Counted from the stretch's first letter, positions 1,063 through 30,636 are shown. The stretch: DNA of 64,000 bases from Anaerolineales bacterium (GCA_044224715.1 JBGAJV010000010.1:13619-77618), one strand, 5' to 3'. A program made the numbers and translations. The notes: generated by a model not told the origin, from the letters alone.

Positions 1063-4000
1063 GTGTCCGCCCGCTCCGAAACAACATCCAAAGCGTCAAC
1101 GTGGCTGAGCCGTCTGGATTGGCGCTGGCTCGGCCTGCTGTTGTTTCTGCCCGCGCTCTCGCGCTGGTGGTGGAGCGGCCTGCCGGCCGGCGACGATCAC
1201 TACATTCACGTGTACCGGGCCGTCGAGCTGGATTGGGCGCTCTCGCAGGGCGCCAACTACCCGCGTTGGGCGGCGGACCTCGTGTTCGGGTTCGGGTATC
1301 CGCTGTTCAGCGTCCACGGGCCGGCCGCTCACTATGTGATCGTCGGGCTCCATCGGCTGGGGTTGTCGGTCGTGCAGGCCACGCTGGCGTCGTTTGCGCT
1401 GGCCGACGTGGTCGGCGGCCTCGGCGCGTACACGTTGGGGCGGCGCCTGTTCGGCATCCGCGGCGGCGTGTTGACCGCGCTGGCCGCGGTGTATGCCCCC
1501 TACTCCCTGTTGTTCCTCCAACGCGGCGCGCTGCAGGAGATGTTCGGTCTGGCATTGCTGCCGTGGCTCCTGTGGTCGATCCTCGACCTCTTCGAGCGGC
1601 CGGGCGCCTGGACCGTCGCGCGCACGGCGATCCTCTTTGCTCTATTTCCGTTCACCCACAATCCGTCGACGGCTGTGGCGTCGGCCTGCGCCGTGTTCAT
1701 GATCGTGCTGTTGAGCGTCAACGCGCCGCGCGGCCGACGACTGCGCCCGGCCCTGTTCAGCGCTGGCGCTCTGGCGCTTGGACTGGCGCTCTGCGCCTGG
1801 GTCTGGCTCCCGATCGCGTTCGAGATCAGCGCGATCCACATCGATCGCGCCTATAGCCCGCCGCTGCTCGATTATCACTTTCAATTCGTCCGGATCGGCG
1901 AGTTGTTGACATGGCCAAAAGCGTATGATCCATACCTGTTGAACTTCGCCGTCCCGCATGCGGTGGGCTGGCCGCAGCTCCTCCTCGCGGGGTTGGCCCT
2001 GAGCCGACTGCCCCGTCGGCCCGCCCCACTCCGCTTTCTGTTGATCGCCGCGGCCTTCGCGGCCGTGGCCCTGGCCGCGCTCACGCTGCCCGACTCGGTC
2101 TGGATCTGGGATCATCTACCCGGGCTGCGTCTGATCCAGTTTCCATGGCGACTGCTGGGTCCCGGAAGTTTGCTGCTCGCGGTCGTGTGCGGAAGTCTGG
2201 TCGCCGACTCCCCGTCTTCGGTTCGGCCAAACCCGCGCTCCGCGTGGGTCATCGTCGCCGCCGCCGCGGCGCTGACGGTGTACGGTTTGCCCTGGACGTA
2301 CGTCCCGCTGGATCCGAGCGTGTCGGCCAACCCATCGCTGATCGAGATCCAGGATCGCGAGCGCCGAACCCTCACGATCGGAACGACCACGGCCGGCGAG
2401 TATCTCCCGATCTGGGTGCAACAACTGCCCGATGCGACGACCCTGCAGGCCGCCTACGCCGCCGGCGGACCGATCAAGCGGTTGGATCGTGCGTCGCTGC
2501 CCGCGACGACCCTGGTCGTGTCCGAAGAGGCGGCCTACACGCGCCAGCAGGTCGTGCTTGATAGCCCCGTGGCCTTCACGGCCGTGTTCAACGTCTTCTA
2601 CTATCCCGGCTGGTGGGCGACCGTCAACGGCGTCGACGTCGCGCTCACGCCGACGACGCCGACCGGCCTGATCAGCCTGCCGGTCCCGGCCGGACGATCG
2701 ACGATCGTGCTCGACTTCGGGTCGACCGCGCCGCGCGACGTTGGCGGCGCGATCACGGCCGTCAGCCTGTTAGCGTGGTTGGCGCTCGCCGTCCGCGGCC
2801 TGGCGTCGGGTCGAAGCCGGCCGATCTCCAAAGACCCCGACGGCGTAACGCTGCCGGCGTGGGGCTGGGCCGCGGCCGCCGCCGTCGCACTGGCCGTCCT
2901 GGGCCTGCGCGCCGTGAGCCAAACCGTCGACACACCGTTCGTGCGGCTGCGCGCGCCGGACGGCGCGGCGCCATCGGCCCAGCAGCCGACAGTCCTCGAC
3001 TTCGGCGAAGCGCTCCGGCTCAGCGGGTTCACGGCGAGCACCAGCACGGTCGCGGCCGACCAGCCGCTCGAGCTTACGTTGTACTGGCGGCCGATCCTGC
3101 CGGAGCGCGACGACTACAGCGTACAGGTCACCCTGCGCGACGCGGCCGGCGCGTTCTTCGCCCAGTCTGACACGCAGAACCCGGGCAATCGCCCGACCCG
3201 GCTCTGGCCGTTCGAAAGTTACGCGGCGGATGCACACACCCTGAAGCCGTATGCGGCGACGCCGCCCGGCACATACGCCATCATGGCCATGGTGTATCGC
3301 CAGAAGGACGGCCAACCGGTCAGCGGCCCGACGCAGATCGGCACAGTGACGGTCACGTGCCCGACCCAGGCACAGATCGACACACGACGGCAGTCGCTCG
3401 ACATCGCGTTCGGCCCCATCGATTTGACCCAGGTCGACGCACCGGCGACGACAGCGGGCGTCGGCGATCTGTTGCGTGTCACGGCCTACTGGGACGCGCG
3501 CCAACAGACCGATGTGGATCTGCTGGCGCGCATCCGGCTGCTCGACGCGCAGGGGCGCGTGCTGACCAGCGCCGACCTGCCGCCCGTGCGCGCCGACTAC
3601 CCCACCAGCGCATGGGAGCCCGGCTGCCCGGTTCGCGGCGCGCTCGGGCTGCGAGTCCCGGCCGATGCGGCCACCGGCCGCTACACCGTCGACATCCAAT
3701 TGACACAGGGCGACACGGTCCTGAACACGCCGGTGGTCGTCGGGAGCGTGGACGTGCGCGCGCCCGACCGGACCTTCGACGCGATGCCGGTCGATCACGC
3801 CGTCGGGGCCCGGTTCGGCGACGTGGCGGAGCTCGTCGGATGGACCGAGTCGGAGGGGGTCTTGAGCCTTGTCTGGCACGCGCTCGGAGCATCGGAGCGG
3901 CCCCTCGTCGTGTTCGTCCACGCGCTCGACGACTCAGACGCCATCATCGGCCAGGTCGACGCACAGCCCGTGGGCGGCGCGCGACCCACGACGTCGTGGT

Positions 4001-4143
4001 TGGCCGGTGAGTTCATCCGTGACCCATATCGACTGCCCCTATCGACGACGCCTGTCCGCTACCGCGTCGGCCTCTACGACGCGGACACCGGCGCCCGCCT
4101 GACGACGACGTCCGGCGAGGACTTCGTCATCCTGATGCCGTAA
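1063..4143 (+). CDS. Large polytopic membrane protein, YfhO/PTPS-related-like (GT-C-like) N-terminal region plus three C-terminal repeat modules
   Basis: Part of ORF 547..4143. I place the start at GTG 1063 because the upstream extension overlaps cysS, the cysS terminator and the TATAAT. The N-terminus has many TM helices and the loop GDDHYIHVYRAVELDWAL..YPRWAADLVFGFGYPLF. A YfhO-like YYPGWWATVNG segment follows. Three ~120 aa repeats occupy about 2986-4140. Confidence 0.8.
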   Translation: MSARSETTSKASTWLSRLDWRWLGLLLFLPALSRWWWSGLPAGDDHYIHVYRAVELDWALSQGANYPRWAADLVFGFGYPLFSVHGPAAHYVIVGLHRLGLSVVQATLASFALADVVGGLGAYTLGRRLFGIRGGVLTALAAVYAPYSLLFLQRGALQEMFGLALLPWLLWSILDLFERPGAWTVARTAILFALFPFTHNPSTAVASACAVFMIVLLSVNAPRGRRLRPALFSAGALALGLALCAWVWLPIAFEISAIHIDRAYSPPLLDYHFQFVRIGELLTWPKAYDPYLLNFAVPHAVGWPQLLLAGLALSRLPRRPAPLRFLLIAAAFAAVALAALTLPDSVWIWDHLPGLRLIQFPWRLLGPGSLLLAVVCGSLVADSPSSVRPNPRSAWVIVAAAAALTVYGLPWTYVPLDPSVSANPSLIEIQDRERRTLTIGTTTAGEYLPIWVQQLPDATTLQAAYAAGGPIKRLDRASLPATTLVVSEEAAYTRQQVVLDSPVAFTAVFNVFYYPGWWATVNGVDVALTPTTPTGLISLPVPAGRSTIVLDFGSTAPRDVGGAITAVSLLAWLALAVRGLASGRSRPISKDPDGVTLPAWGWAAAAAVALAVLGLRAVSQTVDTPFVRLRAPDGAAPSAQQPTVLDFGEALRLSGFTASTSTVAADQPLELTLYWRPILPERDDYSVQVTLRDAAGAFFAQSDTQNPGNRPTRLWPFESYAADAHTLKPYAATPPGTYAIMAMVYRQKDGQPVSGPTQIGTVTVTCPTQAQIDTRRQSLDIAFGPIDLTQVDAPATTAGVGDLLRVTAYWDARQQTDVDLLARIRLLDAQGRVLTSADLPPVRADYPTSAWEPGCPVRGALGLRVPADAATGRYTVDIQLTQGDTVLNTPVVVGSVDVRAPDRTFDAMPVDHAVGARFGDVAELVGWTESEGVLSLVWHALGASERPLVVFVHALDDSDAIIGQVDAQPVGGARPTTSWLAGEFIRDPYRLPLSTTPVRYRVGLYDADTGARLTTTSGEDFVILMP

Positions 4144-4153
4144 GCGCCGTCGC

Positions 4154-4165: not shown

Positions 4166-7100
4166 GTGGCTGTGAGCAAGATCCCGGATCCATCGTCCAA
4201 TGGTCGCGCGTCGTCGCGTTCCACCTGGTTATGGCTGGCGCTTGCGCTGCTATTGCCCGCGCTCTCGCGCTGGTGGCTGCCCGCGCTGCCCGGCGGCCCC
4301 GATCAGGCCGTCCATGTCTTTCGCGCGGTCGAGCTCGATTGGGCGCTGGCGAACGGCGAGTGGTATCCGCGTTGGGCCGCGGACCTCGTCTTCGGGTTCG
4401 GCTACCCCGTCTTCAACGTCTACGGGCCCGGCGCTCAATATGTGATCGTCGGTTTGCACCACCTCGGGCTGTCGTTCGTCGCGGCGACGTTGGCGGCCTT
4501 TATGCTGGCCGACGTCTTGGGCGCGACTGGCGCCTTCGCCCTGGGGCGTGCGCTGTTCGGAGATCGCGGCGGCGTGCTAACCGCGCTGGCCTACGCGTAC
4601 TCGCCGTACGTCCTGATGTCACTGCATCGGGGCGCCCTGCCCGAGGCGTTTGGGCTCGGGCTGCTGCCCTGGTTACTGTGGTCGATCTGGCATCTGCATC
4701 GAGCACCTGACGCCTGGGCCCTGGCGCGCACGGCGTTGTTGCTCGCGATCTTTCCATTCGTCCACAACCCGTCGACGGCGCTGGCCGGCGGATGCGCCGT
4801 CGCGCTGACCATCGCCCTGAGCGTCGCGACGCCCGCTGGCCAACGCTGGCGATCCGCCGCAGCCTGCCTCGGCGCGTTGGCGCTTGGGCTTGTCGTCTCG
4901 GCCTGGTATTGGGCGCCGGTCGTCGGCGAGATCGGCGCGATCCAGATCGCGAGGGCCTACAGTCCACCGGTCCTCGACTACCACTACCACTTCCTGCAAC
5001 TGACCGAGGTTTTCACCTGGCCGCAGCCCTTTGACCGTCACCTGATCGGTGGCGAAACGCCGCGCGCCCTGGGATGGCCACAGGTGGCTTTGGCGCTCGT
5101 CGCTCTGACGACCGTGTCGCGCGCCTCGGGTCGGCAGAGAGCCGCGCTGATCGCGGCGGCCTTCGGCGCGATCCTCCTCACCGGCCTGACCCTGCCGATC
5201 GCGGTCACGGTCTGGGAACGCCTGCCTGGGTTGAGCCTGATCCAGTTCCCGGTACGGCTGCTTGGCCCGGCGAGCCTGCTCCTGGGTCTGCTGGTCGGTC
5301 TGCTCGGCGCGGATCCCGCCTCGAACGGTCCACGCCACGCGACGCCCTGGCTGCTGCCGCTGGCGGCGCTGGGCGTGATCGTGTATGCCCTGCCCTGGAC
5401 CTACGTCGGCCTCGATCCAAGCGTCGCGGAAAACCCGACGCTTGTCGACATTCAAGACTGGGAGCGCCGCACAGGCACCATCGGCACGACGACAGCCGGC
5501 GAGTATCTGCCGATCGGTGTTCAGGCACTGCCGAACGCCGATCGATTGAGCGCGGCCTACGCCACTGGCGCCCCGATCCGACGGCTTGATCCGGCCACGC
5601 TGCCGCCGGGCGCGCGCGTGCTCGCCGAGGACGCCGGATACACGCGCCAGCACGTCGTGATCGACAGCCCAATCGCCTTCGACGCCGTGTTCAACGTGTT
5701 CAACTATCCGGGCTGGCGCGCGACGGTCAACGGCGCCGACGTGGCGCTCGGCACGACCACGCCGGAGGGCCTGATCCGCGTGCCCGTCAGCGCCGGCCGC
5801 AGCGACGTCGTGCTGGACTTTGGCACGACGCCTGTCCGCCAGGTCGGCGGCGCTCTGTCGATAGCCGGGCTGGCCCTTGCGGTCGGGCTGGCGGCGTGGG
5901 GTCGGCGGCGGCGACCGGCGACGCTTCAGACAGCGGGCGTGGGCGGGTCTGTCTGGCTGTGGCCAAGCCTGGGCGCGATCGGCGTCGGGCTGGTCGTGGC
6001 GCGATTACTGACTCTCACTACCGACACGCCCTTCGCGCGCAGCCGTCTGGTCGATGGCGCCGTGCAAGGCCTGCCGCCGCTCAACCTCGACTTAGGCGCC
6101 GCCTTCCGTCTGATCGGGTTGGAGCAAGACGCCACCACGATCCCGGCGGACTCGACGCTCGTGGTCAGCCTGTATTGGCGCGCGTTGATGTCGAGCGCCG
6201 AGGACTACAGCGTGCAGCTCAGTCTGCGCGACGACGCTGGCCGCTTCTTCGGCCAATCCGATTCGCAGAACCCGGCCGGGTTCCCGACCTCGCGCTGGCA
6301 GCTTGATAGCTACGCGCGCGACGTGCATGCGCTCACGCCCTATCCCGGCACGCCGCCGGGCACCTATCGATTGGCCACGACGGTCTACCGTCAGAGCGAC
6401 GGCGTGCCGCTCACCGCACCAATCACCATCGGGTCGGTCGCCGTCACGTGTCCGCGGGTCGCGCCGCGCCTCGAACCCGTGACGACGCTCGACGCGGACT
6501 TCGGCGCGATCACGTTGCGCGGCGTGGATTGGGTGACGGCCGAGGCCGGTGCCGGCGACCGGCTCGGTTTCACCGTGTACTGGGAGCTCGTGGACCAACC
6601 GACCGTCGCGGCGCTGGCGCGCGTGCGGCTCGTCGATGCCGTCGGGGCAATCGCCGTCGAGCAAGAGCTGGCGCCCGTGCGGGACGATTACCCGACGACC
6701 GACTGGCGCCCGGGCTGCCCGCTGCGCGCGCCGCTGGCCCTGCGCCTCCCGGCCGACCTCACCGCCGGCGACTACCGTGTCGAGATCCAGTTGCGCGCCG
6801 CCGGGTCCCCGTTGGGCGACTTCGCGACGCTCGGCCGCGCCCGGGTGACGGCGCCCGCGAGACGCTTCGACGCGCCTTCGGTCGGTCATGCCGTCGGCGC
6901 ACGTTTCGGCGACGTGGCCGAACTCGTCGGCTGGTCAGCCGCCGAGGGCGGGATCGAGCTGGTGTGGAAGTCGCTTGGGGACACCGACGTCAGCTATACG
7001 GTGTTCGCGCACGCCCTGGCGCCCGACGACACGATCCTCAGCCAGAGCGATTCACCGCCGCTGGCCGGCCAACGGCCGACCACCTCCTGGGTGTCGGGCG

Positions 7101-7234
7101 AGTACGTGATCGACGAGCACCCGCTCGCATCCGTCGCGACTTCGCCTCGATACCGCATCGGCCTGTACGATCCGATCACGGGCGCGCGTCTCGTCACATC
7201 CGACGGCGCCGACTTCGTGATCCTGGAGCCGTGA
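4166..7234 (+). CDS. Large polytopic membrane protein, tandem paralog of 1063..4143
   Basis: 1022 aa ORF, collinear with the upstream gene (roughly two thirds identical by eye). It has the same PRWAADLVFGFGYPVF loop, a NYPGWRATVNG segment and three C-terminal repeat modules (about 6090-7231). Confidence 0.85.
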   Translation: MAVSKIPDPSSNGRASSRSTWLWLALALLLPALSRWWLPALPGGPDQAVHVFRAVELDWALANGEWYPRWAADLVFGFGYPVFNVYGPGAQYVIVGLHHLGLSFVAATLAAFMLADVLGATGAFALGRALFGDRGGVLTALAYAYSPYVLMSLHRGALPEAFGLGLLPWLLWSIWHLHRAPDAWALARTALLLAIFPFVHNPSTALAGGCAVALTIALSVATPAGQRWRSAAACLGALALGLVVSAWYWAPVVGEIGAIQIARAYSPPVLDYHYHFLQLTEVFTWPQPFDRHLIGGETPRALGWPQVALALVALTTVSRASGRQRAALIAAAFGAILLTGLTLPIAVTVWERLPGLSLIQFPVRLLGPASLLLGLLVGLLGADPASNGPRHATPWLLPLAALGVIVYALPWTYVGLDPSVAENPTLVDIQDWERRTGTIGTTTAGEYLPIGVQALPNADRLSAAYATGAPIRRLDPATLPPGARVLAEDAGYTRQHVVIDSPIAFDAVFNVFNYPGWRATVNGADVALGTTTPEGLIRVPVSAGRSDVVLDFGTTPVRQVGGALSIAGLALAVGLAAWGRRRRPATLQTAGVGGSVWLWPSLGAIGVGLVVARLLTLTTDTPFARSRLVDGAVQGLPPLNLDLGAAFRLIGLEQDATTIPADSTLVVSLYWRALMSSAEDYSVQLSLRDDAGRFFGQSDSQNPAGFPTSRWQLDSYARDVHALTPYPGTPPGTYRLATTVYRQSDGVPLTAPITIGSVAVTCPRVAPRLEPVTTLDADFGAITLRGVDWVTAEAGAGDRLGFTVYWELVDQPTVAALARVRLVDAVGAIAVEQELAPVRDDYPTTDWRPGCPLRAPLALRLPADLTAGDYRVEIQLRAAGSPLGDFATLGRARVTAPARRFDAPSVGHAVGARFGDVAELVGWSAAEGGIELVWKSLGDTDVSYTVFAHALAPDDTILSQSDSPPLAGQRPTTSWVSGEYVIDEHPLASVATSPRYRIGLYDPITGARLVTSDGADFVILEP

Positions 7235-7263: not shown

Positions 7264-9042
7264 CTAACGCCTCAGGCTCGGCAACCACAGCCGGTCGATC
7301 TGCGACCAGACCGCGACCGACACCGGGGTCCAGATGCCGGTGTTGGCGACGTTGACGGCAGCAGCGCCGGGTGTCGACACGTCGCCGGCGTTCAGCGTCG
7401 CGCGCAACGTCGCGGAATCGACGACGGTCGTCGTGCGCGGCTGGCCGTTCCAGGTGACCGCGCTGCTCGCCGTGAACCCGGCGCCGTGCACGGTCACGAT
7501 CGTGTCGCCGGGTCCAAACGCGGAAGGCGTCACGGTCAGGCCAAGCTCGATCGCGCCGCTTTCGCAGCCCGGGCCCTGCGGACGCGCGAGGCCGCGCTGA
7601 TCGGTCGCCGGGCAGTTGGCGCCGGCGTTCAAGGCAGGGCTGTTCGGCGCCGGCTGCAGGCCAGGCACTGGGCCGGCCGTCCAACCGCCGAGCAGCGGAT
7701 CCGCGATGGTGAGCGACGCGGCGCAATTGGTCTCGTTCCAGTAATTCTGATTGGGGTTGCGGTTCGGGTACTGCAGCGTGCCGCCCAGGTTGGTGAGCGC
7801 CGACGTGCAGTGCTGTTGGATGGCCCAGGGGTTTCCGCCGGTGTTGGCGCTGAACAGCACGTTGCGCAGCGTCAGGGCATCTCCGGCGATGGCGCCGCCG
7901 TTGAACCCGGCCACGTTGTTGGCAAACGTCACATTGACGACGCTGATGGGCGGCTCGCCGCCGAGCAGACTCTCGGCGAACGCGCCGCCGTTGCCGCGTC
8001 GCCAGTCGTCGGCTGCCAGCGCCGCCGGGTTGACGGCGTCGTTGGCGTAGAACGTCACGTTGGTCAGGTTCGCCGAAGCGTCGACCCACACCGCCCCGCC
8101 CTGCGTGTCGGCGTGGTTGCGCAGGAACGCGAGGTTGGTGAGCGTGAGCGGCGGCGTCGCCTGACCCGGATTTCCGCGCCCGAACCAGATGCCGCCGCCC
8201 GTCCCGGCCGCGCCCTGCGTGTTGACGGTTGCGCGATTGCCGTCGAACGTGCTCGCATCGACCGTGACCGACTCGTTGGCGTATACGCCGATGAAGATCG
8301 CGCCGCCGTGATTGTTTGTGAGGTTCCCGGTGAAGGTGTTGCCCTGGAGCAACACCGTGCTGGACTTGGAGAACGAGTTCGCGCCGTCGATATACACGGC
8401 GCCGCCGCCACCGCAGTCGCCCTGAGCGTCGATGTTAGCCGTATGGATCGCCTGATTGCCCGTGAACGTGCTGGACTGAATGGTCAGATCGGTGCGCAGG
8501 CTGTTGATCGCGCCGCCGTTGTTGGCGCGATTGCCGACGAAGACGCTGTCGACCACGGTCGCCGTGCTGCCCCCACCGATGAAGAGCGCGCCGCCTCCGT
8601 CGCAGGTGTTCGCGTCCCGGAGCGCGACGTTGTGGCTGAACATCACCGTGTCGATCGTCAGTGTGTTGTAGAAGCCGACTTTGAACCCGGCGCCCTGATC
8701 CGCGCTGCGGCCGTCGCGCAACGTCAGGTTGCGCAACGTGATGGTGAGGTTGTTATTGCTGATCAGCAGACCCGTGGCGCTGTTGCCCGACAACGTGATC
8801 ACGCCGCCACCGTCGAGGGTCGTGTTTGTCGTGAACGTGATGGGGGCGGCGAGCGTGATCGTCGCCGGGCCACCGCAGTTGAACGTGATCAGGCCGCCCG
8901 CCGTGATGGCCGCGCGCAGGCCGGCCTCCGTGCACGTGGTGACGACGCCGGCGGCGCGGACCGTGATCGGTTTGAGCGTGGCCGCCGTCAGAGCCACGCC
9001 CAAAAGCAGCGAACCCAGGTGTCCAGATAACGAGTTTGGCAT
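7264..9042 (-). CDS. Secreted right-handed beta-helix repeat protein (PMP-like GGAI repeats) with C-terminal IPT/TIG-like domain
   Basis: Start set at ATG 9042 (MPNSLSGHLGSLLLGVALTAATL, signal-peptide-like). It has repeated GGA(I/V/F) ... F.GN motifs, a DQRGLARPQGPGCESGAIEL motif (choice-of-anchor-Q-like), and a terminal TVHGAGFT..VTWNG..T beta-sandwich. Confidence 0.75.
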   Translation of the reverse strand: MPNSLSGHLGSLLLGVALTAATLKPITVRAAGVVTTCTEAGLRAAITAGGLITFNCGGPATITLAAPITFTTNTTLDGGGVITLSGNSATGLLISNNNLTITLRNLTLRDGRSADQGAGFKVGFYNTLTIDTVMFSHNVALRDANTCDGGGALFIGGGSTATVVDSVFVGNRANNGGAINSLRTDLTIQSSTFTGNQAIHTANIDAQGDCGGGGAVYIDGANSFSKSSTVLLQGNTFTGNLTNNHGGAIFIGVYANESVTVDASTFDGNRATVNTQGAAGTGGGIWFGRGNPGQATPPLTLTNLAFLRNHADTQGGAVWVDASANLTNVTFYANDAVNPAALAADDWRRGNGGAFAESLLGGEPPISVVNVTFANNVAGFNGGAIAGDALTLRNVLFSANTGGNPWAIQQHCTSALTNLGGTLQYPNRNPNQNYWNETNCAASLTIADPLLGGWTAGPVPGLQPAPNSPALNAGANCPATDQRGLARPQGPGCESGAIELGLTVTPSAFGPGDTIVTVHGAGFTASSAVTWNGQPRTTTVVDSATLRATLNAGDVSTPGAAAVNVANTGIWTPVSVAVWSQIDRLWLPSLRR

Positions 9043-9260
9043 GGCGCGATCGTACGCGCAGACCGGATCCGCGGCCATGCGAAAAACCGTTGAGATTGGT
9101 TCCGCACGGCGCGGGCCGAGCGCCGACACCCGCTATACTTGGGCCACGCGTGCCCCTTGTCGATGCCCAAAAGAGTTTCGACAGGGAGCGGAGACCCTTG
9201 CGCTCGGAACCGTCCTTCCCGACCGTCCGGGTCCGCCGCCGGACACACGCGCTCGCCTCT

Positions 9261-12220: not shown

Positions 12221-12289
12221 CGGCGAATTTAGACGCTTCAACCCTCGCAAACTGTGCGCGACGGCGAAACGCTGTACAATCGCGCCGCC

Positions 12290-21222: not shown

Positions 21223-21256
21223 GGCTCAGCCGAGCCGTCCGGAGAGCGAGAGCATC

Positions 21257-21927: not shown

Positions 21928-24900
21928 ATGGGCTGGCCGGATTGGATCGTGAGGGCGCGTCAGCATCACGATCGACTCGACGCTGTGCTTGCCGTGCTGT
22001 TGGCCCTGCCGGCAGTGGCGCCATTTCTGAGCCAGCTCACGCGTGGCTACGACACGGCGCCCCACATCCTCCGCTTCGTCCTGTTGGATCAGAGCCTGGC
22101 CGGCGGCCAGGCTCTTCCGCGCTGGTCGCCGGAGTTGATGAGCGGGTACGGATATCCGCTGTTCAACTTCTATGCACCCGCGGTCTACTACCTCGGCGTG
22201 TTGGCCCGCCGCCTCGGTCTTGACGGCGCCGCGGCCTTTCAGGCCGTCGCGGCCGTGCTGCTCGCGACGGCGGCGATCGGCGCCTGGCGCCTGTGCCGCG
22301 ACCTCGCCGACGCCTATGGCCCCGACCACGGTGCCGGATCGACGCGCCGAGTGGCGGCCCTGGTCGGCGCCGTCGTCTATGTCTACGCGCCGTACATGCT
22401 GATCAACGTGTACGTCCGCGGCGCCATCGCCGAGCTGGCGGCGCAAGCGCTGCTGCCCTGGGTCTTGTGGGTGTTCCGTCGCGTCGCCACGACCAAAGAC
22501 CCGCTCCGCTATGCGCCGGCCGCGGCCCTGTTGCTGACCGGCGTCATCTTCAGCCACACGATCTCGCTGCTGCTCGCTCCAACGTTCGTGGTCCTGATGG
22601 CGCTCGTCCAGGCCGGAAAGCCCACGCGCCGTTGGCTCTGGGTCCTCGGCACCGGCCTGACGGCCCTTGCGTTCAGCGCCATGTTCTGGGTGGCGTTGGT
22701 CTTCGAGCGCGGCGCCGTAGGCACGACGGCGTATCAGGCCGCGCAACAGGTCGGCGCCGAGGCCTTCTTGCAGCTTGGCGATTGGATTTGGACCGCGCCC
22801 ACCTACCCGTACGAGCGCATCACATCCGGCCTACGCTTCGGCCTGAGCCTGCCGCACCTGCTCCTCGCCATCGCCGGCGTGGCGCTTTGGCGACGGCGCC
22901 TGAACCGCGAACTCGTCGCGCACATCCTGGTCGTGATCGGCGTGGCCGCGCTGCAACTTGACGTCACACGACCGCTCTGGGCGCTCGGCGGCGTGATCGA
23001 TGTGGTCCAGGCGCCGTCGCGCACGCAGACCTACCTGTATCTGTCGATCGCGGCGCTGACGGCGATCGGGTTGATGCGGCTGCCGCGCTTCGTGGAGCCC
23101 CGTCCGCTGGGAGTCGCCCTGATGGCGCTCCTCGTGGTGACGGCTTCGCCATGGGCGACGCTCGCGCCGCCGTGGCTCGAGTCAACGACGGAAGCCGGGC
23201 TTGCGCAGATCGCCAATGCCGAAGCGACGGGCCCGATGCCGGCCGCGTCGGCCTACCCGGATTTCCTGCCGCGCTGGGTCGACCTCTCCGGCGGGTTGGC
23301 CAACCCGGCCGCGTCGGGAGACGTCGCCGCGACCGCGGTGCTCACGGCCATCGGCCCGACCGAGTACCGTCTGCGCGTCGACTCACCGGAGGCCTGGATC
23401 CTCCACACGGCGGACTTCTTCTTCCCGGGTTGGTCGATCTGGGTCGACGATGCCGCCGTCGACGTTCAGGCCGCGTCGCCGCTTGGCCTCGTCACGGCAC
23501 AAATCCCTGCGGGCGAACACGAGGTCCGCGTGGCTTTCGTCGGCTCGTTGCCTCAGCAGCTGGGGGCCTGGATCACGACGGCGGCGGCCGCCTGCGTCGC
23601 CGTTCTGCTCGGATGGCGTCGGTGTTGGTCCTCGGCAGCCGCAACACTGGTGCTGATGGGCCTCGGGCTGTGGATGGGACCGCTCGGTCGGGCGGACGTG
23701 CAATCGGTCGACGCGACGCCGCTCGCGGTCTCCGGCGCGCCGTTCGACCTGCTCGACGTGACGACCACGCAAGCCACGCCGGATCGCCTCATGGTGCGCG
23801 CCGTGTGGTTCGTGCGCACAGCCGGGCCCGATGTCAGGCTGCGCTGGGTGCTCAAAGACGCCGATGGTGTCATCGTCGCCGAGACACGCGGTCGGCCGTG
23901 GTTCGATCACGCCCACAGCCAGGCGTGGCCCGCTGGCACCGTGGCCGACGATCGCGCCGAGATCCGCCTGCCGGGCGAACTGCCGGCCGGCACGTATCGT
24001 CTCGCCGTGTGCGCGCAAGCCGAAGCAGAACGGGCGACGGCCTGTGAGCCGACCACGGTCGCGCGGACCGGTGTCGCGATTTCGACGCCGGGGGCATCGC
24101 TCGCCGGCGGGTCCACGCGGATCAGCTTCGAACATGACCTGGATCTTGTCGCCGCCATCCTCGAAACGCCGGAAGGCGATCTTGCGCTGGGTGAGGCGGC
24201 GCCCGTCGTCACGACCGAGGAAGCGCTCGTCCTGCGGCTGATCTGGCGCGCGCGGAATTGGCTCCTTCCCGAACGACTCGACAGCACACCGATCGTGATG
24301 ACGCGTCAGGGCGAGCGGCTGTCTTACTCCACCTACCCGCTCGCCGGTCTGCAGGGCTGGCCGCGCAGCGTTCCACCGGGCACGTTGATCGTCGATCGTC
24401 AGCAGATCGACCTGGATGACGCCGCTGCCGGGGGCCGCTACCCGGTGACCGTGAGGGTGTTCGATCCGGCCACGGGCGCCTATCTGCGGGTATTGGACAA
24501 CACGGGCCAGCCCGTCGGCGACGTCGCCACGATCGGCGAGATCCGACTGTTCGCCTCCGACTCGACACGGGTCGCTATCCCACGCGATGCGGTCGTGGGC
24601 GACGTCGCGCGGTTCATCGGCTCCGAACTCTCCGGCGCCGGCGCAACCCTGAAACCCGGCGGCGTGCTGACCTTGACCGTGGCGTATCGCGCACTGCAGC
24701 CGGCCGATCGCGAGCTGACGCAGTTCGTCCATGTGTATAGCCTCGATGGCGGTCTGATCGCGCAGGCCGACGCCCCGCCCAGGGCCGGCAACAACCCGGC
24801 GCCGTCGTGGATCGCAGGCGAAGTCGTCCGCGACACGGTGGTGTTGACGCTTTCGCCAGATGCGCCGGCCGGCCGGTATCAGGTGCTCTGGGGGCTGTAC

Positions 24901-25002
24901 GATCCGGTCACCGGCGAGCGGGTGCCGATCACGTTGCCCGATGGGTCCGAGCCGGCCGATCGGGCCCTGGTGCTGACCGAAGTCCAGGTCGCGGCGCCGT
25001 AA
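21928..25002 (+). CDS. Large polytopic membrane protein, third YfhO/PTPS-related-like paralog with three C-terminal repeat modules
   Basis: Start at ATG 21928 (MGWPDWIVRARQ). The loop YDTAPHILRFVLLDQSL..LPRWSPELMSGYGYPLFNFYAP parallels 1063 and 4166, and FFFPGWSIWVDD is present. C-terminal modules span about 23690-24999 and end in FVHVYSLDGGLIAQADAPP..PAPSW..GLYDPVTGERV. Confidence 0.8.
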   Translation: MGWPDWIVRARQHHDRLDAVLAVLLALPAVAPFLSQLTRGYDTAPHILRFVLLDQSLAGGQALPRWSPELMSGYGYPLFNFYAPAVYYLGVLARRLGLDGAAAFQAVAAVLLATAAIGAWRLCRDLADAYGPDHGAGSTRRVAALVGAVVYVYAPYMLINVYVRGAIAELAAQALLPWVLWVFRRVATTKDPLRYAPAAALLLTGVIFSHTISLLLAPTFVVLMALVQAGKPTRRWLWVLGTGLTALAFSAMFWVALVFERGAVGTTAYQAAQQVGAEAFLQLGDWIWTAPTYPYERITSGLRFGLSLPHLLLAIAGVALWRRRLNRELVAHILVVIGVAALQLDVTRPLWALGGVIDVVQAPSRTQTYLYLSIAALTAIGLMRLPRFVEPRPLGVALMALLVVTASPWATLAPPWLESTTEAGLAQIANAEATGPMPAASAYPDFLPRWVDLSGGLANPAASGDVAATAVLTAIGPTEYRLRVDSPEAWILHTADFFFPGWSIWVDDAAVDVQAASPLGLVTAQIPAGEHEVRVAFVGSLPQQLGAWITTAAAACVAVLLGWRRCWSSAAATLVLMGLGLWMGPLGRADVQSVDATPLAVSGAPFDLLDVTTTQATPDRLMVRAVWFVRTAGPDVRLRWVLKDADGVIVAETRGRPWFDHAHSQAWPAGTVADDRAEIRLPGELPAGTYRLAVCAQAEAERATACEPTTVARTGVAISTPGASLAGGSTRISFEHDLDLVAAILETPEGDLALGEAAPVVTTEEALVLRLIWRARNWLLPERLDSTPIVMTRQGERLSYSTYPLAGLQGWPRSVPPGTLIVDRQQIDLDDAAAGGRYPVTVRVFDPATGAYLRVLDNTGQPVGDVATIGEIRLFASDSTRVAIPRDAVVGDVARFIGSELSGAGATLKPGGVLTLTVAYRALQPADRELTQFVHVYSLDGGLIAQADAPPRAGNNPAPSWIAGEVVRDTVVLTLSPDAPAGRYQVLWGLYDPVTGERVPITLPDGSEPADRALVLTEVQVAAP

Positions 25003-25058: not shown

Positions 25059-26504
25059 ATGCCATCTTACGAAGCCGTCATCGGGCTGGAGATCCACATC
25101 CAGCTGAACACCCGCACCAAGATCTTCTGTGGCTGTCTGGCCGATAGCTGGGGCGCGCAACCCAACACCAATATCTGTCCCGTGTGCTGCGGTCTGCCCG
25201 GTGTGCTCCCGGTGCTGAACCGCGCCGCGGTCGAGAAGGCCATGCTGCTGGGCGCCGCGATCGGCGCCACGGTGTGCGACGAGAGCTTCTTCGATCGCAA
25301 GAATTACTTCTACCCCGACCTGCCGAAGGGCTATCAGATCACGCAATACGATCAGGCCGTCGTCCAAGGCGGGCGCTTCGACGTCCCGATGCCCGACGGT
25401 CGCACGCTGTCGGTGTCGATCACGAAGGCGCATCTCGAGGAAGATGCCGGCAAGACGCGCAACAACCCGTCCAGCGGCGTGCGTCAGATCGACATGAACC
25501 GCTGCGGCGTCCCGCTGATCGAGATGGTCACCGGCCCCGACCTGCGCTCGGCCGAAGAGGCCGCGCAGTTCCTGGTGCATCTGCGTCAGTTGTTGCGCTG
25601 GCTCGACGTCTCGGATGCGAACCTCGAACGCGGCCACCTGCGCTGCGACGCCAATGTCTCGATCCGCGAAGCCGGGGAGACGGTGCTCAACCCCAAGACC
25701 GAGATCAAGAACGTGAACTCGATCGACGCCGTGCGCAACGCCATCGAGGCCGAGATCGCGCGTCAGATCGGCGAGGTCGAGGCCGGGCGACGCGTGTCGG
25801 CCTGGACGTTGGATTGGGACGACGAGACCCAAACGCTGCGCAAGATGCGTTCGAAGGAAACCGAGGCCGACTACAGCTACTTCCGCGAGCCCGATCTGCT
25901 CTCGGCGTTGCTGAACCCCGAGTGGAAGCAGTCGGTGCTGGCGACGCTGCCCGAGCTCCCGCTGGCTCGCCGCGCGCGGTTCGTCGCGGATTACCAGCTG
26001 AACGACTACGACGCGACGATCCTGACCGACGAGCGCTCGCTGTCGGACTACTACGAGACGGCCGTTCAACTCGGCGGCAACCCCAAGTCCGTGGCCAACT
26101 GGATGATGAATGACGTGCTGCGCGTGCTGAACGAGAGCGGCGCATCGCCGGCCGAACTCGTGTTCCGGCCCGAGCATCTGGCCGAGACGATCAAGCTCGT
26201 CGACGCGGGCACGATCAACCGCGCCACCGGCACAAGCCTGATCTCGAAGGTGATCGCTTCCGGTCGCACGCCGGCCGACATCATCGCGGCGGAGGGTCTG
26301 GCGCAGATCTCGGGCTCAGATGCCTTGCGCGCGCTGGCGCAGTCGGTGCTCGACGAGAACGCGCAGCAGATCGACGCCTATCGGAAGAAGCCGGCGTTGT
26401 TGAAGTGGTTCGTCGGCCAGGCGATGCGCAAGAGCCAGGGCAAGGCCAACGCTCAGACGCTTGAGCAGATCTTTCTCGAGTTGTTGCCAGCCGCTAACGC
26501 ATGA
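25059..26504 (+). CDS. gatB: Asp/Glu-tRNA amidotransferase subunit B
   Basis: Start MPSYEAVIGLEIHIQLNT..KIFCGC, the typical GatB N-terminus, with a C-terminal GatB/YqeY-like tail. The upstream part of ORF 24807 overlaps the preceding gene. Confidence 0.9.
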   Translation: MPSYEAVIGLEIHIQLNTRTKIFCGCLADSWGAQPNTNICPVCCGLPGVLPVLNRAAVEKAMLLGAAIGATVCDESFFDRKNYFYPDLPKGYQITQYDQAVVQGGRFDVPMPDGRTLSVSITKAHLEEDAGKTRNNPSSGVRQIDMNRCGVPLIEMVTGPDLRSAEEAAQFLVHLRQLLRWLDVSDANLERGHLRCDANVSIREAGETVLNPKTEIKNVNSIDAVRNAIEAEIARQIGEVEAGRRVSAWTLDWDDETQTLRKMRSKETEADYSYFREPDLLSALLNPEWKQSVLATLPELPLARRARFVADYQLNDYDATILTDERSLSDYYETAVQLGGNPKSVANWMMNDVLRVLNESGASPAELVFRPEHLAETIKLVDAGTINRATGTSLISKVIASGRTPADIIAAEGLAQISGSDALRALAQSVLDENAQQIDAYRKKPALLKWFVGQAMRKSQGKANAQTLEQIFLELLPAANA

Positions 26505-28738
26505 CCCGTGCGCGGGCCCGCATGTGGGCGGGTCGTCTCTGGCCGATCATCGCTCTGACGCTCGCAGGGGCGTTGTTCTTCTGGCGTTTCGCGGCGCCGG
26601 ATGAGCGCGACCGCATCGCCTACGAGCCCGGCGATTTCACCGAGACCTTCCTCGGGTTTCATCAACAGACGTACGTCGCTTTTGTGGCGGGCCGCTGGGC
26701 CGATTGGTCCGACTGCCTGTGGTCGGGCTACCCGCTCGGCGGCGACCCCCAAGCCCAGTTGTTCTATCCCCCGAAGTGGATCGCGTTCGCGCTCCTGCGC
26801 CTCCAAGGCTATGGCCACTTTCCTCTGGGGGCATTGACGGCCGAGATCGCGGCGCACTATCTGTTGCTGTCGTTTGGCACCTATGGCTGGCTGCGCGGGC
26901 TGCGTCTCAGGCGTGGCGCGGCCGCGTTCGGCGCCGTCGTCTTCGCCTACGGCGGTTACGCCATGGGATACGCCCCACTCCAGTCGGCTGTGCTGATGAC
27001 GGCGACCTGGCTGCCGTATGTGCTCTGGGCGTTGGATCGATTGGCGCGCCACGGTCGCGCGGGCGACCTCGCGCTCGTCGCGTTGGCAGCCGCTCTGGCC
27101 TTCTATGCCGGTCACCCGCAAACGTTTCTGTTCGTCGGGCTGTTGAGCGGCCTGTACTGGATCCTGCGTCTGCGGCAGATACGCCGCGGCAACGGCTGGT
27201 CCGCGGCGATGACGATCGCGCTGGGCGGGTTCATCATCGCGCTTTGTCTGGCACAACTGACGCCGACCATCACGTTCAGCCAGGCGTCGACGCGCGCCAG
27301 GATCGCGTACGTCGATGCCAGCGGCGGATTCCCGTTCGTCGATCTGCTGCAGCTGGTCCTCACCGGCGTCGTCAGCCATTGGCATCCGTTGTTCGTCGGT
27401 CTGCTGCCCCTGAGCCTGGCGATCTATGGGCTGAGGCGCGCCGACGCGACGCGCCGTTTCTGGCTTGCGATCGTTGTCGTCGGGCTGGTCCTCGGTTTTG
27501 GCGAGCGCGCCGGCTGGACCGGCGCCGTGTTCAACCTCGTGCCGGGTTGGAGCCTGTTCCGCGGCCAGGAGCGCGTGGCGATCTGGGTCAGCTTTGCCCT
27601 GGCGACGTTGGCGGCGTATGGCGCCGACGATGCGTTCGGTCCACTGACCCGTGGTGCGCACCGCGCGTTACGCCACAGCACGTGGACCAATGTCGCGCTA
27701 TGGATCGGTGTCGGCTTGCTCGCCTTGGGTGGCGTGCTGGTTGCCCGCCTCGACCTCGACCGCACCGATTGGCGCGCCCTGCCCGACCGCGTCGGCGTCA
27801 TGTGGCTGGGCGCGAGCCTGGCGCTGGCCTTCTGGCTGCTGCGCACGTACTGGATGCGCTCGGCGCGCGCGCTGCTGCCGCTTTTGGCGCTTGCCGCGGT
27901 CGTCACCGAGCTGTACGCCGCGAACCGGCCGCTCAACGTCGTGGCCGCTTATGACCCGACGCCGCCCAGCGTGCTCCTCGAGCCGATCCTCGAAGCACGC
28001 GACGTCGCGCCGAACGCTTTCTTTCGCGTCAACGATGATGCCGGCCTCCCCGGTCACGCCGGGTGTCTGTATGGCTTTCGGCATATCGATGGCCGGACGC
28101 CGATCAAACTGACCGCGTACGCGCAGTTCCACGAACGTCTTCCCGAGCGCGTTCAGTGGCAGCTCCTCGGGGTCTCGTATCTCATCACGCGCCGCGATTC
28201 GATCGAGGACGCCGGCGCTCAGGTCATCGCGACCCAGCCGGAGGCCGGGATCCGCACCTGGCGGCTCTCGACCGAACCCCGCCGGGCCTGGCTCAGCCAT
28301 GTCGTGATCTCGGCCGCGTCGACGCAAGTTGTGCTGGATCAACTGTCGCAGGCGCAGAACCTGTACGACACGGCCTGGTGGGTCGGTTCGAGCCCCAACG
28401 TCGGCCCGGCCACCGGGGGCGAGTCGGTCACCGTCCTCGCGGACGCGCCGGGCCGCATCACGCTTCAACTGACCACGACCGCGCCGGCCGTGTTGACCGT
28501 CAGCGAAGCCTTCGCGCCGGGGTGGCAGGCGCTGATCGACGGCCGACCCGCCGAGGTCGAGGTCAGCGACGGCGCCCTCTTGGGCCTTGCCGTCCCGGCC
28601 GGCGACTCTCTCATCGAACTGACCTACACGCCCGCGGAACGGTCGCCTTCGCTGGGTCTGTCCGGGCTGGCCGCGCTCATCGCTCTTGGTCTCGCGGCGC
28701 GCGACGCGTTCCGCAGTCTGCGAGCCAACCGGGCATGA
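26501..28738 (+). CDS. YfhO-family-like polytopic membrane protein (GT-C-like)
   Basis: 745 aa. Its ATG overlaps the gatB stop (ATGA). The motif GDFTETFLGF..LWSGYPLGGDPQAQLFYPP is present, and the C-terminus has FAPGWQALIDGRPAEV...LTYTP plus a terminal TM helix, as in YfhO proteins. Confidence 0.7.
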   Translation: MTRARARMWAGRLWPIIALTLAGALFFWRFAAPDERDRIAYEPGDFTETFLGFHQQTYVAFVAGRWADWSDCLWSGYPLGGDPQAQLFYPPKWIAFALLRLQGYGHFPLGALTAEIAAHYLLLSFGTYGWLRGLRLRRGAAAFGAVVFAYGGYAMGYAPLQSAVLMTATWLPYVLWALDRLARHGRAGDLALVALAAALAFYAGHPQTFLFVGLLSGLYWILRLRQIRRGNGWSAAMTIALGGFIIALCLAQLTPTITFSQASTRARIAYVDASGGFPFVDLLQLVLTGVVSHWHPLFVGLLPLSLAIYGLRRADATRRFWLAIVVVGLVLGFGERAGWTGAVFNLVPGWSLFRGQERVAIWVSFALATLAAYGADDAFGPLTRGAHRALRHSTWTNVALWIGVGLLALGGVLVARLDLDRTDWRALPDRVGVMWLGASLALAFWLLRTYWMRSARALLPLLALAAVVTELYAANRPLNVVAAYDPTPPSVLLEPILEARDVAPNAFFRVNDDAGLPGHAGCLYGFRHIDGRTPIKLTAYAQFHERLPERVQWQLLGVSYLITRRDSIEDAGAQVIATQPEAGIRTWRLSTEPRRAWLSHVVISAASTQVVLDQLSQAQNLYDTAWWVGSSPNVGPATGGESVTVLADAPGRITLQLTTTAPAVLTVSEAFAPGWQALIDGRPAEVEVSDGALLGLAVPAGDSLIELTYTPAERSPSLGLSGLAALIALGLAARDAFRSLRANRA

Positions 28739-30636
28739 AGGCGCCAGACGGCCGCTGGCGTGGATCGTCCGGACTGGCGCTGGCCCTGATGGCCGTGGCC
28801 TGTCTCGTTCGAGCAGCCAACGTCGGGCTCGCCAGCTTTCGCGGCGACGAGGCCTTCAGTATCCGTCTCGCGCAGCTGCCGCTGTCGACTCTGTTCGCGG
28901 CGGTGGCGGTCTCGGAGCCCAACCCTCCGCTGCAGTTTCTGTTTCTGCGCTTTTGGACGGCGATCGCTGGCCAAAGCGAAGTGGCCGCGCGCTGGCCATC
29001 GGTGCTCTGTGGCGTGCTCGTCGTCGCGTTGACCTACCGGTTGGGCCGGGCGCTGATCGGCCGTCGGGCGGCGCTCCTGGCAACCGCCTGGGTCGCCGTG
29101 CAGCCGTTTCTGGTCTGGTACGCGCAAGACCTGCGGTCGTTTTCGAGCCTTGCGTTCTGGTGTCTCGGCGCGGCCTGGTGCGCGTGGGAGGGTTTGCACC
29201 AGCCCACCTGGCGGTGGTGGCTCGCGAGCGCCGGCGCGGCCTGGCTCGCGATGAACCTGCACTACTTCGCCGCGCTGCCGCTGGGCGCGCTGGCGGTCGC
29301 CGTCGGAATGTCACCGCGCATCCGCATGACCTGGCACCGCGCTATCGTCGCCTACGGCATCGCAGCGGCGGCCTTCCTGCCGTGGGCAGTCTATGTCTGG
29401 CCGTTGCTGAGCGGCCACGAAAAAAGCTGGCTCCATCAACTGAGCGCAACGGAAGTCACCTGGCGAACCCTGACCGCCTACAGCACCGGCGGGCACTGGG
29501 CCGGCGCGCCCGATGGCTGGATCGGGCCTGGGGCGATCGGGCTGGCCGTGCTCATGATCGTCGGCCTGATCGTGAGCCGTCGCGATCGGGTTCGTCTGAT
29601 CTGGCTGCTCGCGCTCGGCCCGGCGACGCCGATCGCCCTCGGGTCGTTGAACGCCTGGCGCCCAAGCTATTCCGAACACTACGTCATCACTGGCCTGATC
29701 GGCTCTCTGCTGATCGCCGCCGCGGGCCTGCAAACGGGTCTGGAGCGCCTGGCGGGCGGCGCACGCACGCGCTGGTTTGCGGGTGTATCGCTGGCAGGGG
29801 TCGCCGTGGCCTCGCTCGCCTGCGTCTGGAACGTCTGGTACGACCCGGCGTTCGTCAAGGCCGCCGATTGGCGCGGTCTGGCCGATGCGCTGGCCGCGCG
29901 AGCCGGGCCGAACGACATCGTGTGGATGAACCTGCCCGACCCGGCCCTCGAGATCTATCTGGCCGGTCGGGTGCCGCTCGAGAACGCGCCACCGGACGCG
30001 CTTCCGGCACAAGACACCGGTCATGCCGACACGCGCGTTGCGGCGCTGGCGGCGGCCGCCGATCAGTTGGCCCGGGTTCAGGCCGGGCACAATCGAGTGT
30101 TCTTGCTGTTTTCGCCCAATCCGGCCTGGGACCCTGAGGGCTTCGCGGGCCAGGAACTCGACGGCTGTTGCGAACTGATCGACGAAAACGTTGTGGCGGG
30201 TCAACACGTCAGGGTCTACGACACGCCGCGCGGCGCCATGGCCGCCCGGCAACCGCTCGACGCAGACTTCGACGCGGGGATGCGCCTCACCGGCTACAGA
30301 GTCGAACGTGTCGCCGATCGGCTGCACCTCACGTTGTTCTGGCGGACCGACGCCGCGATCGCGCGCGACTACACGGTGTTCGTGCACCTGCTCGCAGCCG
30401 ACGGCTTTCAAGTCGCGGGCGGCGACGGTGATCCGCGCCAGGGCACCGCGCCGACGTCGACCTGGCGCCCGAACGTCGACGTCATCGACCCACACCCCAT
30501 CCCGCTGCCCGCGGGTCTGGGGGCAGGACCGTATCACCTCGTGATCGGCTGGTATCTGCGCGAGACCGGCGCACGCGTTCCGCTTGACGGTGGCGGGGAG
30601 TCGGTCGCGTTACCCGATGTCTACACCTTCCCCTGA
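28735..30636 (+). CDS. ArnT/PMT (GT39/GT83)-like membrane glycosyltransferase with one C-terminal repeat module
   Basis: The ATG overlaps the upstream stop (ATGA). It has an FRGDEAF first-loop motif and about 11 TM helices. The C-terminus DYTVFVHLLAADGFQVAGGDGDP..APTSTW..GPYHLVIGWY (about 30258-30633) matches the shared module. Confidence 0.75.
   Translation: MKAPDGRWRGSSGLALALMAVACLVRAANVGLASFRGDEAFSIRLAQLPLSTLFAAVAVSEPNPPLQFLFLRFWTAIAGQSEVAARWPSVLCGVLVVALTYRLGRALIGRRAALLATAWVAVQPFLVWYAQDLRSFSSLAFWCLGAAWCAWEGLHQPTWRWWLASAGAAWLAMNLHYFAALPLGALAVAVGMSPRIRMTWHRAIVAYGIAAAAFLPWAVYVWPLLSGHEKSWLHQLSATEVTWRTLTAYSTGGHWAGAPDGWIGPGAIGLAVLMIVGLIVSRRDRVRLIWLLALGPATPIALGSLNAWRPSYSEHYVITGLIGSLLIAAAGLQTGLERLAGGARTRWFAGVSLAGVAVASLACVWNVWYDPAFVKAADWRGLADALAARAGPNDIVWMNLPDPALEIYLAGRVPLENAPPDALPAQDTGHADTRVAALAAAADQLARVQAGHNRVFLLFSPNPAWDPEGFAGQELDGCCELIDENVVAGQHVRVYDTPRGAMAARQPLDADFDAGMRLTGYRVERVADRLHLTLFWRTDAAIARDYTVFVHLLAADGFQVAGGDGDPRQGTAPTSTWRPNVDVIDPHPIPLPAGLGAGPYHLVIGWYLRETGARVPLDGGGESVALPDVYTFP

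Follow-up and report, generated by a model that had tools for sequence, protein, structure and literature searches.

A C-terminal β-sandwich module of Chloroflexota GT-C glycosyltransferases as a candidate acceptor-binding domain

A stretch of 64,000 nucleotides (nt) from an Anaerolineales bacterium (JBGAJV010000010.1:13619-77618, here called the window, with positions counted from its first letter) contains five open reading frames (ORFs) for long membrane proteins whose soluble C-terminal tails carry a common module. The 11 segments concerned form one homologous domain family of about 120 residues, and this family corresponds to none of the curated families tested. The carriers are GT-C-like glycosyltransferases. 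The function towards which we lean, with somewhat better than even confidence, is that of an acceptor-binding accessory domain of Chloroflexota GT-C enzymes that resembles a carbohydrate-binding module (CBM). In the following, the five genes are denoted g1 (the gene at 1063), g2 (4166), g3 (21928), g4 (9261) and g5 (28735). The G+C content of the window is 66-71%.

Copies of the module and their scaffolds

A seed profile hidden Markov model (HMM) built from the last 125 residues of the five carriers identifies 11 domains in the five ORFs, and nothing more at E <= 10, when all six frames of the window are searched. A profile of 95 diverse homologous modules recovers all 11 copies in the same six-frame search, with independent E-values (iE) from 1.6e-8 to 4.4e-35. 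No twelfth copy was found in any frame of the window with either profile. The two internal copies of g3 are marginal with the seed HMM (iE about 5e-3; module 1 at 6.5e-3); with the 95-module profile every segment is significant, and the 11 segments align as one domain. A preliminary description of the window, made from its sequence, had counted 11 copies at the C-termini of five GT-C-like membrane proteins. Both profiles arrive at exactly this number, and their envelopes agree with the ranges proposed there to within about 40 nt.

All five carrier genes are located on the + strand. The product of g1 (1063-4143) is a PTPS_related/YfhO-like GT-C protein with three C-terminal modules, whose match to PF10131 (22.3 bits) lies below the cut-off of 26.4 bits. 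Its tandem paralogue g2 (4166-7234) has an equal architecture, matches PF10131 with 31.0 bits, above the cut-off of 26.4, and shares 55% identity with g1 over 996 residues (BLASTP). The gene g3 (21928-25002), found between gatA and gatB, encodes a PTPS_related GT-C protein with three modules (PF10131 at 36.9 bits, cut-off 26.4) that is collinear with g1 at 27% identity. One module each is present in g4 (9261-11369), a GT-C protein of the GT87 (DUF2029-type) family (PF09594 at 27.3 bits, cut-off 25), and in g5 (28735-30636), an ArnT-like GT-C protein of the PMT_2 family (PF13231 at 57.2 bits, cut-off 26.1). The N-terminal membrane regions of g2, g3, g4 and g5 pass the gathering scores of the GT-C clan, whereas g1 remains below (22.3 versus 26.4 bits). 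Because the Pfam families differ, with g1 and g3 tied to the PTPS_related group, the window holds three independent scaffolds: PTPS_related (g1-g3), GT87 (g4) and PMT_2 (g5). At least three N-terminal architectures had been proposed at the outset.

For g5, the full-length AlphaFold model (37-sequence alignment; pLDDT 92.4, pTM 0.85) has three parts: a helical membrane domain spanning residues 10-369, an α/β domain spanning 379-503, and the module at 506-632. The closest solved structure is ArnT (5ezm, E 2.4e-8), followed by STT3, PMT4, ALG9/12 and Emb, and the scaffold can therefore be regarded as a bona fide GT-C fold. The residues R36-G37-D38-E39, which follow the first transmembrane (TM) helix, are nearly invariant among the 37 orthologues. 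Across all 633 residues g5 is 99% identical to a protein from a Logan assembly (P0183), and it is 64% identical to a protein of an Anaerolineales metagenome-assembled genome (MAG; P0187); the window organism stands near Anaerolineales MAGs. The domain preceding the module is not common to g4 and g5 (BLASTP E 0.2). A larger unit of module plus preceding domain shared by these two proteins was thereby ruled out.

Beyond the window the family is large. A HMMER scan of 1.84 billion cluster representatives (50% identity) returned 28,061 proteins at E <= 0.001, 19,214 of them at <= 1e-10. Architecture and taxonomy were read from a sample consisting of the best 150 of these 28,061 proteins, 28 proteins from a first homologue search and 80 genome loci. 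The first homologue search, made with a 125-residue profile, yielded only fragments of at most 252 residues and is therefore silent on architecture. The genome scan used the position-3 (terminal-subtype) consensus as query, which biases it to close relatives; protein and genome samples alike favour such relatives, and the taxonomic range given below is read from them. Among the 150 and 28 proteins, three copies are found in 142, one in 19, two in 10 and four in 7. The module is located at the extreme C-terminus in every case examined, with a median of 6 residues between the last copy and the end of the protein. Pfam scans of 41 full-length proteins, seven long proteins and 77 N-terminal regions from the loci revealed GT-C-type scaffolds exclusively. 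At least ten families are represented, among them PMT_2, PMT, PTPS_related, YfhO, DUF2142, DUF2079, TMEM260-like, STT3 and Glyco_transf_22, together with GT87 in the window.

Of the 80 loci, 78 are labelled as Chloroflexota, including Anaerolineae, Caldilineae, Promineifilaceae, Thermoflexia and Ardenticatenaceae; one has no taxon label and one is labelled as Pleurocapsa. The last (L068; CAZZJW010000013.1, uncultured Pleurocapsa sp.) has 71% G+C and encodes an Ala/Arg-rich protein, both atypical for a cyanobacterium, and is probably a mis-binned Chloroflexota contig. The named module-bearing matches in the protein searches are all from Chloroflexota, and full-length-profile matches in Methylomirabilis and Blastocatellia lack the module. 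Mapped over this sample, the phyletic range is Chloroflexota and the scaffolds comprise at least ten GT-C families. GT-C genes with the module often form tandem arrays, and 33 of the 80 loci contain two to four of them within 4 kb. One Chloroflexi MAG (JACRPR010000066.1; L042:1-8102) has four consecutive genes on the same strand, each ending in one or two modules. Two further loci (L033 and L064) have three module-bearing genes each.

Subtypes, fold and location of the module

For each of the three positions, a separate HMM was built from the modules of the 142 three-copy homologues. Each copy in the window scores highest with the HMM of its own position, and the third-position HMM gives the highest score for the lone modules of g4 and g5. 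In g1, the copies are located at 2971-3360 (position-1 subtype, iE 8.9e-30; 114 bits with the position-1 HMM versus 78 and 75 bits), 3382-3762 (position-2 subtype, iE 2.9e-28; position-2 HMM best, 105.5 bits) and 3784-4140 (terminal subtype with FVH and GLYD..TG.RL, iE 2.7e-22; position-3 HMM best, 105.4 bits). The arrangement in g2 is the same, with a position-1 copy at 6071-6448 (iE 5.5e-32; 128.6 bits), a position-2 copy at 6470-6853 (iE 3.5e-27; 99.6 bits) and a terminal copy at 6875-7231 (iE 9.3e-20; 106.3 bits), each score referring to the HMM of that position. The first two copies of g3 are degenerate members of the position-1 subtype (23725-24072, iE 3.6e-12 with the 95-module profile) and of the position-2 subtype (24175-24525, iE 1.6e-8; position-2 HMM best, 44.5 bits); its third copy is of the terminal subtype (24565-24963, iE 7.5e-29; position-3 HMM 123.5 bits). 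The single module of g4 (10986-11366, iE 8.5e-28; position-3 HMM best, 89.1 bits) is a divergent terminal copy, and that of g5 (30238-30633, iE 4.4e-35) is likewise of the terminal subtype.

Column statistics were taken over 142 proteins from clusters of less than 50% identity, with residues numbered as in the g5 module. The family-wide core consists of L10, G12, L26, W28, Y38, L44, D46, G49, P65, T66, W69, G72, D77, G90 and Y92. Near-invariant in the terminal subtype are F41 (0.97), H43 (0.94), Q54 (0.96), D56 (1.00), P59 (0.99), E73 (0.92), D77 (0.99), G97 (0.98), Y99 (0.99) and R106 (1.00). The terminal subtype is present in every carrier and is the sole subtype in single-copy proteins. The internal copies, six of them in the window, keep the core elements L.L.LYW, DY, PT.W and G.Y and are without FVH and GLYD..TG.RL; because they hold the core alone, the 11 copies are one family, not one type. 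The motif that the preliminary description had assigned to all copies (DYTVFVHL ... Q.D..P..G..PTS.W..GE...D ... GLYD..TG.RL) fits the five C-terminal ones and is not carried in full by the six internal ones. Since the near-invariant set is restricted to the terminal subtype, this motif is best regarded as the signature of that subtype.

The same description had spoken of a module shuffled across scaffolds. Its presence on distinct GT-C scaffolds, three here and at least ten Pfam families elsewhere, bears out one part of this statement. Recent exchange, however, does not agree with the data, as terminal copies on different window scaffolds are 31-36% identical. The three-copy array is ancient and ordered, with position-specific subtypes, and is not the product of recent duplication.

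In g1 and g2, one cysteine follows module 1 (VTVTC and VAVTC) and a second lies in the W..GC loop of module 2 (WEPGC and WRPGC), at window positions 3300-3520 and 6390-6620, respectively. Cysteines at both sites occur in 3 of the 142 three-copy homologues (P0029, P0038 and, with a different motif, P0138), and the tail is free of cysteine in 84 of the 142. The pair in g1 and g2 may form a lineage-specific inter-module disulfide. It was dropped as evidence for an outside location: with both sites occupied in only 3 of 142 homologues, it is a detail of one lineage.

The AlphaFold model of the module, obtained for the g5 copy with an 11-copy alignment, is a nine-strand β-sandwich (pLDDT 88, pTM 0.80). 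The top match of a Foldseek search against the PDB is the carbohydrate-binding domain (CBD) of Aquifex Wzt (6o14_A; E 2.1e-4, TM-score relative to the query (TMq) 0.67, 132 columns). The C-terminal domain of E. coli Wzt (Wzt-C, 2r5o) also ranks high, followed by β-sandwich domains of GH2 and GH3, by NPC2 and by RhoGDI. These matches recur with the full-length g5 model.

At the level of sequence, no Pfam model (2025 copy) matches the module in the five window proteins, even at E <= 1, and NCBIfam gives no match. Profile searches against PDB sequences yield marginal matches only, to the fibronectin type III (FnIII) domain of RbmA (6.6e-4) and to an Ig-like domain of a sialidase (0.03). Among the 95 modules, sub-threshold Pfam matches are found for DUF4832 (8 of 95, best 1.1e-4), Wzt_C (5 of 95, best 8.4e-5) and ML (4 of 95, best 8.6e-4). 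In one homologue (P0169) the Wzt_C match lies inside a single module and covers 90 profile positions, with 23.3 bits versus a cut-off of 30.4. Searched against PDB sequences with phmmer, this module matched a designed repeat protein alone, and the match was set aside as spurious. Taken together, the fold model, the Foldseek matches and the sub-threshold sequence matches point to an E-set/Ig-like sandwich that is distantly similar to Wzt_C. Full-text literature searches turned up no description of this domain. The preliminary description had given no named family for the module; this holds for Pfam and NCBIfam, with nothing specific among PDB sequences.

GT-C enzymes transfer sugars from polyprenyl-phosphate donors at the outer face of the membrane. 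Topology and ArnT homology suggest that the module, too, is extracytoplasmic. The short loop ahead of the last TM helix carries three K/R residues in g1, g4 and g5, which fits a cytoplasmic loop and a tail on the outside. In g1-g3, two hydrophobic segments separate a YfhO-like 'YPGW' β-domain from the modules after it, which would place the β-domain and the modules on the same side. In g5, the module comes after an α/β domain equivalent to the periplasmic domain of ArnT. The common extracytoplasmic partner proposed in the preliminary description is thus indirectly supported, by the positive-inside topology, the ArnT homology of g5 and the resemblance to the Wzt-CBD fold.

Proposed function and alternative readings

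An acceptor-binding role is the best supported reading because it combines the Wzt-CBD-like fold, the exclusive association with GT-C proteins, the predicted outside location and the invariant polar/aromatic set. The module would bind the acceptor, which could be a polysaccharide of the envelope or a surface protein that is already glycosylated, and would keep it near the active-site groove at the membrane surface, resulting in a higher local substrate concentration or higher processivity. The specific binding site would be held by the terminal subtype, which has the near-invariant F41, H43, Q54, D56, P59, E73, D77, G97, Y99 and R106 together with the family-wide W28 and W69. Since this polar/aromatic set is specific to the terminal subtype, a defined ligand site fits better than a passive spacer. 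The two upstream subtypes of three-copy proteins may extend the binding surface or may serve as spacers, and a GT2 protein similar to polyprenyl-phosphate-sugar synthases, encoded in the same region, might act as donor supply. Since many different GT-C scaffolds of one genome bear the same terminal module, they plausibly act on one common polymer.

A number of observations weigh against this role. The likeness to Wzt_C is below the Pfam threshold and the Foldseek E-value is modest; the lipid-binding sandwiches NPC2/ML and RhoGDI score nearly as well in Foldseek, and no CBM of EmbC or AftD appears among the 50 best structural matches of the module. The GT-C genes lie among housekeeping genes (cysS, gatCAB) and outside any glycan cluster, so that the context names no acceptor. 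Both g4 and g5 depart from the conserved set at some positions. Finally, seven polar residues are conserved at near 100% across scaffolds, which is stricter than in usual CBMs and could instead point to an interface between domains, to a metal site or to some other activity.

Of all features, this strictness across unrelated scaffolds is the hardest to account for, and it leaves room for a more specific role, for example one with a common ligand or a metal site. A speculative extension, to which we assign a low probability, is that the terminal module is no generic CBM but is devoted to recognising one invariant ligand in an envelope-assembly system specific to Chloroflexota. The ligand could be a common anchor or repeat of an envelope polymer, or the residues H43, D56, E73 and D77 could form a metal-dependent site. 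On this reading, acquisition of this one domain would have brought at least ten unrelated GT-C families to a single polymer, and the domain would then offer a direct molecular handle on the composition of the Anaerolineae envelope.

Other explanations of the module have to be weighed against acceptor binding. A mere resemblance caused by high G+C content, by an Ala/Arg/Pro-rich composition or by low-complexity sequence might be suspected from the G+C content of the window (66-71%) and from the two g3 copies that are only marginal with the small seed HMM. Such an artefact has practically no probability left. The individual copies have highly significant E-values, yet nothing else is detected in six frames of equal composition; the database contains 19,214 matching proteins at E <= 1e-10; and the fold is predicted confidently. 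The profile searches, the fold model and the database matches have already refuted it.

More substantial is the idea that the module recognises proteins, docking the enzyme on folded surface proteins of the β-helix or IPT/TIG type for protein O-glycosylation instead of binding a polysaccharide. Most scaffolds are PMT/PMT_2 or TMEM260-like and are annotated as protein O-mannosyltransferases; Ig-like domains are frequently used for contacts between proteins, the FnIII domain of RbmA is a weak match of the profile (6.6e-4), and a secreted protein with PMP-type β-helix and TIG domain is encoded between g2 and g4. The PMT_2 family, however, also includes ArnT-type lipid/glycan transferases, and the closest solved relative of g5 is ArnT rather than a PMT. 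The PTPS_related/YfhO, GT87, DUF2142 and DUF2079 scaffolds are not known to be protein mannosyltransferases, and only adjacency ties the secreted protein (7264-9132) to the enzymes. We consider recognition of a protein acceptor unlikely. An equally small share of our confidence goes to a structural role, in which the module stabilises the enzyme, assists folding or oligomerisation, sets the height above the membrane or pairs enzymes, and has no specific ligand. Copies at positions 1 and 2 keep mainly core residues, tandem Ig-like arrays are common as stalks, and the high pTM of the g5 model (0.85) suggests that module and enzyme pack together in a fixed way. Packing can hardly explain, on the other hand, the invariant H, Q, D, E, D, Y and R across scaffolds that have no other periplasmic domain in common, and the top fold match is a ligand-binding domain. 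Still less probable is a lipid-binding sandwich of the ML, NPC2 or RhoGDI type that holds the polyprenyl tail or a lipid-linked intermediate at donor loading or carrier release. High-ranking structural matches include NPC2, MD-1 and RhoGDI, and 4 of the 95 modules weakly match ML (best 8.6e-4). As a ligand that all GT-C scaffolds would have in common, a lipid carrier would also account for the strict conservation. In solved structures of GT-C enzymes, ArnT among them, it is, however, the membrane domain that binds the lipid donor; ML domains hold conserved disulfides, whereas cysteine is missing from 84 of 142 three-copy tails; the invariant set is polar and does not resemble the lining of a hydrophobic cavity; and the TM-score to NPC2 is about 0.5 versus 0.67 to Wzt.

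About 28,000 protein clusters (50% identity) are without a Pfam or NCBIfam model for the module, which seems to characterise much of the Chloroflexota GT-C repertoire. The carriers are annotated merely as 'glycosyltransferase family 39 protein' or 'hypothetical', and a curated model would improve the annotation of thousands of proteins. The cell-envelope chemistry of Anaerolineae is poorly known. Should the module indeed bind acceptors, it could in isolated form be used as a probe for envelope glycans and glycoproteins of these bacteria. The invariant residues of the terminal subtype are a target for mutagenesis.

Genomic neighbourhood and relation to known systems

The window encodes further proteins related to glycosyl transfer. 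On the - strand, a GT2 gene (15817-16590; PF00535) codes for a protein similar to polyprenyl-phosphate sugar synthases, with ArnC (2.7e-15), Dol-P-Man synthase (4.8e-8) and GtrB (sll0501) as closest relatives in the PDB; it is a candidate for supplying donors to the GT-C enzymes. A sixth GT-C gene (16562-19075, -; 837 residues, weak PMT_2 match, E 6e-4) overlaps this downstream ArnC/GtrB-like gene by 29 nt, and the overlap suggests a pair of synthase and GT-C enzyme. Its product has an Ala/Pro-rich N-terminal extension of about 150 residues and a β-rich C-terminal tail that is unlike the module and weakly matches CBM_AftD (E 0.019). A seventh GT-C gene (26501-28738, +) is YfhO-like (PF09586, 41.6 bits). 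With either profile, the module has no match in the sixth or the seventh GT-C gene.

Between 19222 and 30636 (+), the genes gatC, gatA and gatB are split, with a LysE-type gene (21035-21886) and g3 inserted between gatA and gatB. The genes gatB, YfhO-like GT-C and g5 follow each other with stop/start overlaps of 4 nt (26501/26504 and 28735/28738), and because of these overlaps envelope glycosyltransferases appear to be co-transcribed with a housekeeping amidotransferase. Immediately after g5 and a GNAT acetyltransferase (30545-31084) come a Peptidase_C39-like protein (31153-32010, -) and a large BTAD-AAA-TPR regulator (32341-35586, +).

The secreted protein encoded between g2 and g4 (7264-9132, -) has a signal peptide, β-helix repeats of the Chlamydia-PMP type, a C-terminal IPT/TIG domain and many N-x-T/S sequons. 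The animal member of the TMEM260-like family mannosylates IPT domains. The secreted protein is a possible glycoprotein substrate.

Elsewhere in the window, a gene at 53741-55867 (-) encodes a globin-coupled sensor, in which a protoglobin domain is fused to a methyl-accepting chemotaxis signalling domain. Three ORFs on the + strand (39896-41827, 42197-44473 and 12254-13375, with 643, 758 and 373 residues, respectively) show a coding-like G+C content at third codon positions (GC3) and have no Pfam match at E <= 0.001. The former two lie upstream of two genes, one for a response regulator and one that is histidine-kinase-like.

Several families share a 'P.G.Y.l.v' strand motif with the module, namely DUF4832 (PF16116), NPCBM_assoc, the FnIII domain of RbmA, and ML. 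The DUF4832, ML and RbmA matches are all sub-threshold and concern a minority of members, and none of these domains was found on the GT-C proteins tested. Membership in ML/NPC2 (PF02221) is not indicated, given 4 weak matches among 95 modules, 84 of 142 tails free of cysteine and a TM-score of about 0.5. With Wzt_C (PF14524; 6o14, 2r5o) the module has in common that it is a C-terminal add-on, and Wzt_C recognises polysaccharide, namely an O-polysaccharide at its capped non-reducing end. The two β-sandwiches superimpose (TMq 0.67) with 11-16% identity in structural alignments. The Wzt_C gathering score of 30.4 bits is not reached, with no match in the window at E <= 1 and 23.3 bits for the best homologue. 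While Wzt_C is attached to the ATPase of an ABC transporter in the cytoplasm, the module forms the tail, predicted to be extracytoplasmic, of GT-C proteins.

A closer parallel in position is provided by the GT136 ribofuranosyltransferase ORF12 of Citrobacter youngae O1, a GT-C enzyme whose C-terminal Ig-like CBM pulled down the acceptor O-polysaccharide and was dispensable under overexpression (PMC11127046). As with the module, a β-strand-rich Ig-like domain, predicted to be periplasmic, comes after the last TM helix of a GT-C protein. ORF12 differs in that it belongs to another phylum and another glycosyltransferase family and has a single copy, and the two are likened by description rather than by sequence. 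The CBMs of mycobacterial EmbA/B/C and of AftD, which has three, are reported to bind the acceptor polymer and to affect product size (PMC3044687; PMC11127046). They resemble the module as extracytoplasmic accessory domains on GT-C enzymes, some in multiple copies; they are found in one enzyme family, whereas the module is spread over at least ten scaffolds. Neither CBM_AftD (PF24607) nor any other CBM in Pfam matches the module in the window proteins or among the 95 modules.

The CBMs of EmbC, AftD and ORF12 constitute a functional class and not one homologous family. The feature of this class, a soluble β-rich domain on the outside of a GT-C enzyme, is also seen in the module, with its location as predicted from topology. 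Accessory binding domains on GT-C enzymes are hence already known from EmbC, AftD and GT136 ORF12, and because the principle is established there, the conceptual advance is modest. What is new is a large, uncurated domain family that, on its sequence and modelled fold, appears to be of the accessory-CBM type. It fails the sequence test for both comparisons, and is likened to the CBMs of GT-C enzymes in its position and putative function and to Wzt_C in its predicted fold.

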